A stretch of DNA of 22,436 nucleotides. It comes from Candidatus Hodarchaeota archaeon. Lineage in GTDB: Archaea; Asgardarchaeota; Heimdallarchaeia; Hodarchaeales; Hodarchaeaceae. The notes under the pieces were generated by a model. It ran no database searches and had not been told where the DNA came from. It saw only the letters and a list, made by a program, of their open reading frames with translations. Position 1 is the stretch's first letter; every line of letters begins with the position of its first letter. A program made the position numbers and the translations under genes. Location: contig JAHQWW010000058.1 of assembly GCA_029856365.1 (NCBI GenBank), positions 1 to 22,436 of the forward strand. Direction: 5' to 3'. Of this stretch, positions 5,353-22,436 are shown piece after piece.

Positions 5353-5456
5353 GTCGGGATATCCAAGCCTGGTATGGAGCTGGCCTGCTAAAAATTATGT
5401 TTGCCGAGAGTCAGTGCTCTTTGAGCTCGGGGGTTCAAATCCCCCTCCCGACGCCA
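5353..5456 (+). tRNA. tRNA-Ser(GCU) with an 18-nt intron at 37/38 (5391-5408); CCA encoded
   Basis: Acceptor GTCGGGA/TCCCGAC-G-CCA, D arm TCCA/TGGA, anticodon stem CTGGC/GTCAG with CT-GCT-A, long variable arm GCTC/GAGC, T arm GGGGG-TTCAAAT-CCCCC. Confidence 0.93.
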
Positions 5457-5773
5457 TTTCTTTTCATGTTTTTATTCAACTGATAATTCAGTTCAGTCAT
5501 CATTCAACAGAAAAGCAACATTTTTATTCATATCCAGATTAATGGACAAGTTAGTAATATCTTTGGTATGTTGACTAGAATCAGGCAAAATAGCTGAACT
5601 CAGAAGATGTAAATAATAGAAGTTATATAAAATGTTAACTAAGTGATCTAATAATTTATCAAAAGTGTGTCACCCTCATCAATCTCTAAACACTAGATTA
5701 GCAGCCCTATTTTTTCTGAATCATCAAAAGTCATTCATAGTTTTGTTTCATCTATTTCTGCAAAAAATTGGCT

Positions 5774-5810
5774 CTCTATGAGCTCGAAGGTTTAAAGCCC
5801 CCTCCTGAAG
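5774..5810 (+). repeat. degenerate duplicate of the tRNA-Ser(GCU) 3' half (attR-like scar)
   Basis: 30/37 nt ungapped identity to 5417-5453; T-loop and T-stem are broken, no 5' half. Confidence 0.75.
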
Positions 5811-5914: not shown

Positions 5915-5989
5915 TGGGCCGACCCAGATTCGAACTGGGGACCTTCTCCGTGTCAGGGAGACGTCATAGCCGGGCTAGACCACCGGCCC
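5915..5989 (-). tRNA. tRNA-Val(GAC), intronless
   Basis: GGGCCGG/TCGGCCC-A acceptor, anticodon arm TCTCC-CTGACAC-GGAGA, T arm CCCAG-TTCGAAT-CTGGG; no encoded CCA. Confidence 0.96.
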
Positions 5990-18791: not shown

Positions 18792-18990
18792 GGGGACGTA
18801 GCGAAGCTAGTGGTCTTACTAAAAGCTAGCAAGACCGGACAAGTATCGCGCCGGGCTCCAGAACCCCCTGTGAACTCCACTGGGTTAACTGAAACTCATG
18901 ATGAAGTTCTGGAAAAATGAGGAAACTCGGTGTCACCTCTGCTGGTTGCAAGGTGTCCGAACATCGCCGGTTCAAATCCGGCCGTCCCCA
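18792..18990 (+). tRNA. tRNA-Trp(CCA) with three introns (about 18811-18842, 18862-18924, 18933-18962)
   Basis: Acceptor GGGGACG/CGTCCCC-A; D stem GCGA/TCGC; anticodon stem CCGGG/CTCGG with CT-CCA-G; T arm GCCGG-TTCAAAT-CCGGC; removing the three inserts gives a normal cloverleaf. Confidence 0.9.
18862..18924 (+). ncRNA. intron-encoded box C/D guide RNA of pre-tRNA-Trp
   Basis: D' CTGA 18889-92, C' ATGATGA 18898-904, D-like ATGA 18917-20; guides complementary to the host anticodon arm, +5 positions fall on C39 and C34. Confidence 0.85.
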
Positions 18991-20301: not shown

Positions 20302-20406
20302 GGGCCAGTGGTGAAGTTGGTATCACGCCGCCTTCGCAAGGCGGAGTATTCATAGGGTTTGCCCTTGGATGACCGCAACCCCCGAGTTCGAGTCTCGGCT
20401 GGTCCA
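20302..20406 (+). tRNA. tRNA-Ala(CGC) with a variable-loop intron (about 20347-20378, position 45/46)
   Basis: Acceptor GGGCCAG/CTGGTCC-A with the G3:U70 alanine determinant; anticodon arm CCGCC-TTCGCAA-GGCGG; T arm CCGAG-TTCGAGT-CTCGG; 32-nt hairpin insert. Confidence 0.92.
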
Positions 20407-22223: not shown

Positions 22224-22436
22224 GCCGGGGTTTAGTACATATCTTCATTTAGAGTACTCATGAAGTATTACTATCCGAGAGCCAAGCGGACGGGTTAGTG
22301 TTTATCCATTTCCCTGCAGTACGGCGCTGGCCTTGAGTTATTAAAGAGAATTGAAATGCAGCACTAGAAAGCCAGTGTACTTATTGTACTCGAGGGTTCG
22401 AATCTCAGGATGTTATTATCCTGAAAGAAAATCCCT
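22224..22436 (+). tRNA. tRNA-Ser(UGA) with at least four introns; 3' end beyond the window
   Basis: Exons: GCCGGGGT (22224-31) | AGCCAAGCGGAC (22280-91) | TACGGCGCTGGCCTTGAG (22320-37) | AGCCAGTGTACTTATTGTACTCGAGGGTTCGAA (22370-402) | TCCCT (22432-36); joined they give D stem GCC/GGC, anticodon stem CTGGC/GCCAG, long variable arm GTAC/GTAC and T arm GAGGG-TTCGAAT-CCCT. Confidence 0.85.

Follow-up and report, generated by a model that had tools for sequence, protein, structure and literature searches.

The tRNA-Ala(CGC) gene described here carries 32 surplus nucleotides in its variable region, which raises the question of whether they are spliced out of the transcript as a non-canonical archaeal intron or are kept in the mature tRNA and, if they are spliced, whether they speak for a recent accumulation of introns in this lineage. 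The gene lies in a stretch of 22,436 nucleotides (the window), which is an entire contig of a MAG of 4.24 Mb with 35% G+C, 83.6% completeness and 4% contamination. Judged by the splicing endonuclease EndA, the relatives of this organism (75-93% identity) mostly carry the labels Candidatus Hodarchaeota, Hodarchaeum mangrovi or Heimdallarchaeota, besides a few other Asgard names, and DNA of the same population occurs in metagenomes from marine sediment, seawater and mangrove. Hodarchaeales is the Asgard order nearest to eukaryotes in published phylogenies. Our analysis points to positions 20347-20378 being an archaeal protein-spliced intron of the bulge-helix-bulge (BHB) type, removed by EndA through a relaxed motif, with an origin at or before the base of the genus, a later enlargement and at least three losses; we assign to this reading a probability of about 0.88.

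Anatomy of the tRNA-Ala(CGC) gene

ARAGORN missed the tRNA-Ala(CGC) gene at 20302-20406, and the Rfam tRNA model placed all of the surplus sequence that it saw (35 bases) in the variable region. We analyzed the gene with a cloverleaf parser written for this work, which was allowed to skip candidate BHB introns and which returned a single best solution: removal of 20347-20378, with a mature variable loop AGCCC and the anticodon CGC. Once the 32-nt insert is taken out, a canonical cloverleaf of 73 nt is restored, as is expected for a BHB-type intron, with the acceptor stem GGGCCAG/CTGGTCC including G3:U70. The restored variable loop is identical to that of the alleles of two species of the same genus, G016 and G001, which have no 45/46 intron. 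The features of the gene are the following.

20302..20406, + strand: tRNA-Ala(CGC) gene, two exons, 105 nt (53.8 bits with the Rfam tRNA model; score of 42.4 in the parser, which removes one intron; G3:U70 read directly)
20302..20346, + strand: exon 1, tRNA positions 1-45 (parser; 89-93% identity to the 5' exons of orthologs)
20341..20344, + strand: 5' strand GCGG of the predicted central 4-bp splice helix, positions 40-43 of the anticodon stem (fold; covariation of the short form)
20347..20378, + strand: predicted 45/46 intron, 32 nt (parser; missing from G010, G009, G016, G001 and family f3)
20348..20370, + strand: predicted inner intron hairpin, AUUCA-U-AGGG, loop UUUG, CCCU-UGGAU (fold; pair counts in 8 long-form orthologs)
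20371-20372, + strand: GA spacer, 2 nt, on the 3' side of the inner hairpin
20373..20376, + strand: 3' strand CCGC of the predicted central helix, followed by AA and then by the 3' splice site (fold; parser; covariation of the short form)
20379..20406, + strand: exon 2, tRNA positions 46-73, with no encoded CCA (parser)

The MFE fold of the precursor (-45.5 kcal/mol, z -2.6) shows the acceptor arm, the T arm and a pairing of GCGG (40-43) with CCGC that encloses the intron hairpin, exactly as the first-pass annotation of this DNA had described it; parser and fold agree on the 32-nt insert at 45/46, on this helix and on the hairpin named there. All four pairs of the central helix are formed, each splice site lies two bases into its bulge (AG^U on the 5' side, AA^C on the 3' side), and the fold has a good inner helix. 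The strict hBHBh' motif cut by narrow-specificity EndA, in which each flanking helix has 2 bp or more and the bulges are pure 3-nt ones, is not reached, with an outer helix of 1 bp and the GA spacer opposite the 5' bulge, and the near-absence of the outer helix together with this spacer makes the motif a relaxed one. Among shuffled inserts, the same motif criteria were satisfied by 0.9% when the boundary had to be exact and by 3.8% when it could be up to 3 nt away. We also considered by eye a box C/D guide within the intron and rejected it: GGAUGA is a partial C box, the CUGA D box is absent and 32 nt are too short.

We propose that positions 40-43, the 3' strand of the anticodon stem, would leave their usual partner in the precursor and pair instead with the CCGC that lies toward the 3' end of the intron, giving the 4-bp central helix. 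The 5' cut would then fall after A44-G45, within the 2-3-nt bulge beside the intron hairpin, and the 3' cut after the AA that follows the central helix; both sites would be cut by a two-subunit (alpha-beta)2 splicing endonuclease, a ligase would join AG to CCC, and the anticodon stem would form afterwards. We infer this cutting and joining from the anatomy of the gene, from its conservation, covariation and pattern of presence and absence, and from the enzyme genes of the genome.

Distribution and covariation of the insert in the genus

The tRNA-Ala gene was matched by BLAST in 20 of the 21 other genomes of the genus, and the same HTH-domain gene lies downstream of it in all 21 genomes (this one included), so that the loci are orthologous. 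The 45/46 intron was found in 17 of the 21 species, with a long form of 31-32 nt in eight of them, including this genome, and a short form of 21 nt at the same site in the other nine. The four species that lack it differ in their remaining introns: (i) G010 has a tRNA-Ala(CGC) free of any intron, with the variable loop AGAGC, (ii) G016 and G001 have D-loop and 37/38 introns, none at 45/46, and the loop AGCCC, and (iii) G009 has a D-loop intron only, with the loop AGCTC. Beyond the genus, Ala(CGC) is a compact gene of 74 nt in family f3 of the same class and was not found in two genomes of family f2.

We placed gains and losses on a tree of one flanking protein that includes two long branches, where both deep clades have the intron, one sub-clade is marked by the long form and the absences are scattered. 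This distribution reads as one old gain, one enlargement of the hairpin by 11 nt and at least three losses, and the compact gene of the other family points to a gain at genus level with later losses. The Ala intron would thus be as old as this Hodarchaeales genus, or older, and have been enlarged in one sub-clade; it reads as an old, genus-level gain and not as a sign of ongoing bursts.

The tRNA-Ala(CGC) of G009 (L021 1473-1579, compared with L017, L020, L006 and L008) agrees in its exons and its D-loop intron with the type of another sub-clade (G019/G004) and lacks the 45/46 intron, with AG joined exactly to CTC, yet its flanking gene is sister to those of G014 and G017, two species with the 32-nt intron. 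The allele could be due either to a precise loss of the intron or to an allele replacement, and there are hints of a replacement similar to that proposed below for tRNA-Ser.

The pairing of the insert was then compared among the orthologs. In the nine species with the short form, 98.9% of cells are paired and five of the ten pairs have changed on both sides, a combination of pairing and two-sided change reached by none of 500 shuffles, while slid registers pair just 28-53%. Within the central helix of this form, G42:C passes through G:U to A42:U in species with U at position 28, and position 42 thereby satisfies its anticodon-stem partner 28 and its intron partner together, as a three-way covariation. 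Such a pattern is predicted by a splice helix and not by a retained extra arm. The long form, represented by eight close-kin sequences, shows 82.5% pairing and one-sided changes only, with a C-A mismatch in the central helix of three relatives (G011, G014 and G017), and the lack of any two-sided compensatory change leaves weak support for the base of the inner hairpin in the form found in this genome.

These results bear directly on the possibility that the insert is never excised and forms a long extra (variable) arm of the mature tRNA, an idea to which the self-contained hairpin within the insert lends some appeal. A class II-like arm of this kind should not be missing from 4 of 21 species and from family f3, where the same locus has variable loops of 5 nt in the four species of the genus and is likewise compact in the other family. 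Nor would a retained arm have any use for pairing with positions 40-43, with which it would compete against the anticodon stem, and yet the 3' part of the insert stays complementary to these positions and shows compensatory change at 42. Besides, the other long arms in this genome are confined to Ser and Leu tRNAs, and we consider a retained arm highly improbable. Still less credible, in our view, is that tRNA-Ala(CGC) is a decaying pseudogene, with GCG codons read by tRNA-Ala(UGC): an intronless gene for the latter on contig C81 could indeed read GCG by wobble, but the cloverleaf, G3:U70 and the T-loop consensus of Ala(CGC) are intact in 21 of 21 species, its stem changes are exclusively compensatory, and it is the single CGC gene found in the genome. 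With intronless orthologs on one side and covariation of the splice helix on the other, the comparative sequence evidence upholds the earlier choice of an intron over an unspliced extra arm, and the insert of tRNA-Ala is almost certainly a spliced intron.

The splicing endonuclease

A relaxed motif such as that of tRNA-Ala would require an enzyme with a specificity loop of the crenarchaeal type, and the genome encodes one. Two EndA paralogues were found, each with both Pfam domains: alpha on contig C38 (183 aa) and beta on contig C152 (210 aa). The alpha subunit has the motifs FAVY, DHAPF and VRKRY with the catalytic Tyr, His and Lys; its best solved relative is the catalytic subunit of A. pernix (PDB 3P1Z, E 1.6e-42), to which it aligns gap-free through the Crenarchaea-specific loop, with Lys at the K44 position. 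The beta subunit is devoid of the specificity loop, its alignment to alpha ends before His, and its best matches are the structural units of the ARMAN-2 and Methanopyrus enzymes.

In A. pernix, K44 and the Crenarchaea-specific loop give EndA its broad specificity (PMC3241643), and the (alpha-beta)2 enzyme is the type said to cut non-canonical introns (PMC5829648). The two paralogues fit an (alpha-beta)2 enzyme, whose activity we infer from this homology, and the broad-specificity endonuclease that the first-pass annotation had called for thus has a plausible candidate in a predicted two-subunit EndA with a Lys in the specificity loop. The likeness to the A. pernix enzyme (Hirata 2011, PMC3241643) comprises the gap-free loop, the Lys at the K44 position and a non-catalytic partner encoded elsewhere in the genome, whereas the beta subunit appears nearer to the ARMAN-2 and Methanopyrus structural units than to A. 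pernix beta.

Introns of the window and of the genome

Besides tRNA-Ala, the window contains four tRNA genes.

5353..5456, + strand: tRNA-Ser(GCU), with an 18-nt 37/38 intron at 5391-5408 and an encoded CCA (parser)
5915..5989, - strand: tRNA-Val(GAC), intronless (parser)
18792..18990, + strand: tRNA-Trp(CCA), with three introns, in the D arm at 18805-18834, at 37/38 (18862-18924) and at 45/46 (18933-18962) (parser in relaxed mode)
22224..22436, + strand: tRNA-Ser(UGA), truncated by the end of the contig, with four introns (parsed by hand, as the parser fails with the 3' end missing)

In the hand parse, the introns of tRNA-Ser(UGA) lie at 8/9 (22232-22279), in the D loop (~22290-22320), at 37/38 (22338-22369) and in the T loop (~22403-22432). 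The contig stops at 22436, 4 nt into the last exon of this gene, and tRNA searches of the other contigs did not find the missing 3' end.

Altogether, parser and hand parse yield nine introns in the five tRNAs of the window (none in Val, one in Ser(GCU), three in Trp, one in Ala and four in Ser(UGA)), three of them at 37/38 and six at non-canonical sites, in agreement with the count of at least nine and six made before. The description of their motifs as mostly relaxed was also fair, as most of them have three of four central pairs or miss one flanking helix. The third intron of tRNA-Trp (45/46, 30 nt) shares its site with the Ala intron and is unrelated to it in sequence, as had been noted: their identity of 59% falls inside a shuffle null with a mean of 52% and a 95th percentile of 62%.

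For the genome-wide census we used a search anchored on the T arm and the acceptor, plus hand corrections to four genes, Arg(CCG), Pro(UGG), Phe and Glu(UUC); two or more introns were confirmed in this way in tRNA-Phe. Standard tools fail badly here: ARAGORN, run with its intron option, reported 12 tRNA genes in the genome and the Rfam model 28 above its cut-off, while about 41 are present. The census comprises 40 genes, plus one tRNA-Leu on C152 that was added later, and about 43 introns, or about 1.05-1.1 per gene, a lower bound since the anchored search is blind to acceptor-stem introns and to degenerate T loops. Of the 40 genes, 12 are intronless and 11 have two or more introns, so that about 70% of the genes are interrupted. 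By site, 18 introns are at 37/38 and two are one base off, seven are at 59/60 and about nine in the D arm, with single introns at 8/9, 26/27, 30/31, 41/42 and 43/44; the two at 45/46 (Ala and Trp) are both in the window. Non-canonical introns make up more than half of the total.

With nine introns in five genes against a genome mean of about 1.08, with both 45/46 introns of the genome, and with an insertion scar at tRNA-Ser, the window could be taken for a local hotspot of intron gain, driven by the IS200/IS605 relics nearby or by integrative elements. When five genes were drawn at random from the census, however, at least nine introns were obtained in 7% of the trials (P about 0.07), the Ala intron goes back to the ancestor of the genus, the window introns are unrelated to one another, and an association with mobile elements was not found in the published survey (bioRxiv 2026.10.13.758758). 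A hotspot is therefore very unlikely, and of the window-wide excess claimed at first, the richness stands but a significant elevation above the rest of the genome does not.

All-versus-all comparison of 40 introns gave a single related pair, the 59/60 introns of two tRNA-Glu genes (94% identity). All other pairs stayed at or below the maxima of 20 shuffled sets (65% to 74%), and the best match of the Ala intron in the genome, at 59%, equals its identity with the Trp 45/46 intron. The proposed translocation between tRNAs thus finds no backing beyond the Glu/Glu pair, the only one above the shuffle null, and no copying between tRNA types, as in the transposed families of the Thermoproteales, was seen in this comparison. 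The two tRNA-Glu genes, CUC (C24:28712-28851) and UUC (C79:13061-13200), have a near-identical 59/60 intron of 31 nt, and their remaining introns differ in site (37/38 vs about 43/44) and in sequence. The seven T-loop (59/60) introns, on C24, C33, C41, C79 and C81 and in the window at 22403-22432, are all 29-31 nt long and, apart from the Glu pair, unrelated in sequence, which suggests a constraint on length in the absence of homology.

Three further observations were made in the census. Gln(CUG) and Gln(UUG) each occur twice with differing intron states (C32:26889-26996, C81:42520-42623 and C142:30208-30436), one pair being adjacent on C142; these duplicates could be genuine paralogues, or some of the contigs could belong to a second organism that was binned with this one. 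The tRNA-Leu(UAA) gene (C79:19982-20140) has an intron of 57 nt in the region of the D stem and position 26 that contains AGAUGAU, and tRNA-Tyr (C96:58292-58426) has a 37/38 intron of 60 nt. Both of these introns are long enough for a small guide RNA.

Relation to known systems

The 45/46 position is a listed site of non-canonical introns (PMC4090602). The tRNAs of the Thermoproteales (Sugahara 2008; Fujishima 2010; PMC4090602, PMC4033280) resemble those described here in their relaxed motifs, in the use of the 45/46 site, in having up to three introns per gene and in their dependence on an (alpha-beta)2 EndA, which is predicted here. They differ in that many of their introns form sequence families common to different tRNAs, which has been read as transposition, whereas only the Glu pair (94%) is related in our genome.

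Closer parallels come from the surveys of Asgard archaea (PMC11291895, 2024; Goswami et al. 2026, bioRxiv 10.64898/2026.10.13.758758), which describe short introns at canonical and non-canonical sites, several introns per gene that are missed by standard software, BHB-like boundaries, repeated gain on the tree, no copying between tRNAs, a negative result with which this genome agrees (bioRxiv 2026.10.13.758758), and a two-subunit EndA (PMC11291895; bioRxiv 2026.10.13.758758). These surveys centre on Atabeyarchaeia and Jordiarchaeia/Freyarchaeia, with 2.2 introns per gene and a maximum of five; the extreme families stand at 2.2 and the others at 0.91, and several lineages of Heimdallarchaeia lie below one intron per gene (bioRxiv 10.64898/2026.10.13.758758). 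This Hodarchaeales (Heimdallarchaeia) genome, at about 1.05-1.1 per gene, is near the 0.91 of the other Asgard families. The claim of extensive intron gain in this lineage consequently holds in that about 70% of the genes are interrupted, but such a burden is nothing unusual among Asgard archaea once the two extreme classes are set aside.

The Ala insert adds to a kind already published, the intron-dense Asgard tRNA genes and their EndA background being known (PMC11291895; bioRxiv 2026.10.13.758758), and the general claims of the first-pass annotation were already in print for Asgard archaea. The Ala 45/46 intron and its genus-wide history did not appear in the parts of the two sources that were consulted. 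What is new here is this genus-wide history with its three-way covariation, and the tRNA-Ser mosaic described below. The Ala gene offers a variable-loop intron that would borrow the anticodon stem for its splice helix and whose gain, enlargement and loss can be traced over 21 species, and it is good comparative evidence of selection on relaxed motifs in Hodarchaeales.

The tRNA-Ser(GCU) locus

The att scar that had been reported at tRNA-Ser is real, and two features downstream of the gene describe it.

5454..5757, + strand: AT-rich insert without an ORF, between the present tRNA-Ser and the displaced old 3' part
5758..5810, + strand: the att scar, a degenerate duplicate of tRNA-Ser(GCU) that spans positions ~32-73 (anticodon loop to 3' end)

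From 5758-5810 onward the window runs collinear with the DNA downstream of the intact tRNA in G006, G007 and G008 (80% over 328 nt vs G006). In these three species tRNA-Ser(GCU) has no 37/38 intron, no encoded CCA and different anticodon stems. The allele of this genome combines the intron with the stem CTGGC/GTCAG and an encoded CCA; its only counterparts, at 96-97% identity, are in G014 and G017, two species that are not the nearest kin of this genome in the flanking-protein tree. About 105 nt downstream of the gene also resemble G014. The locus (5353-5810 of the window) is thus a mosaic, whose upstream flank resembles the nearest relatives G006 and G007 and whose intron-bearing anticodon arm, 3' half, CCA and flank of about 105 nt resemble G014 and G017.

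Nothing similar to the insert itself (319 nt) was found in the genus, of which 21 other genomes were searched, and the only matches in a scan of metagenomes were two chance hits and a contig identical to this population. Two junction patterns gave no hit in viral contigs, so that no donor came to light; neither an integrase nor an element body remains in the about 300 nt, and the genome held no further partial tRNA 3' copies, although this last search revealed the unlisted tRNA-Leu on C152.

The simplest reading of these sequences would be that about 400 nt with an intron-bearing gene fragment were imported and the old 3' part was displaced. The imported DNA would have carried the intron-bearing anticodon arm, the 3' half, the encoded CCA and the flank. 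Alternatively, an ancestral tandem pair may have collapsed differently across lineages, which would need at least four independent collapses. That the canonical Ser(GCU) intron arrived ready-made, rather than by insertion into the resident gene, with foreign DNA replacing the gene from the anticodon arm onward and the old 3' part decaying downstream, is a tentative proposal to which we give somewhat less than an even chance. If the import is true, integration-like import of tRNA fragments is one route by which introns spread among Asgard lineages. The arrival route of Asgard tRNA introns is left open in the recent survey (bioRxiv 2026.10.13.758758), and the mosaic is the sole element of our data that touches this question.

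The displaced copy, running from the anticodon loop to the 3' end, has the span typical of archaeal integrase duplications at tRNA integration sites (PMC4090602; Caldiarchaeum insertion, PMC4033280). The idea that introns shield tRNA genes from integration is an existing hypothesis (Randau and Soll 2008, reviewed in PMC4090602), which the first-pass annotation had extended to this window. On either reading it draws no support from this single gene, whose intron-bearing part seems to have come with the insertion: the intron of tRNA-Ser would lie in the part that the insert brought, the opposite of what shielding supposes.
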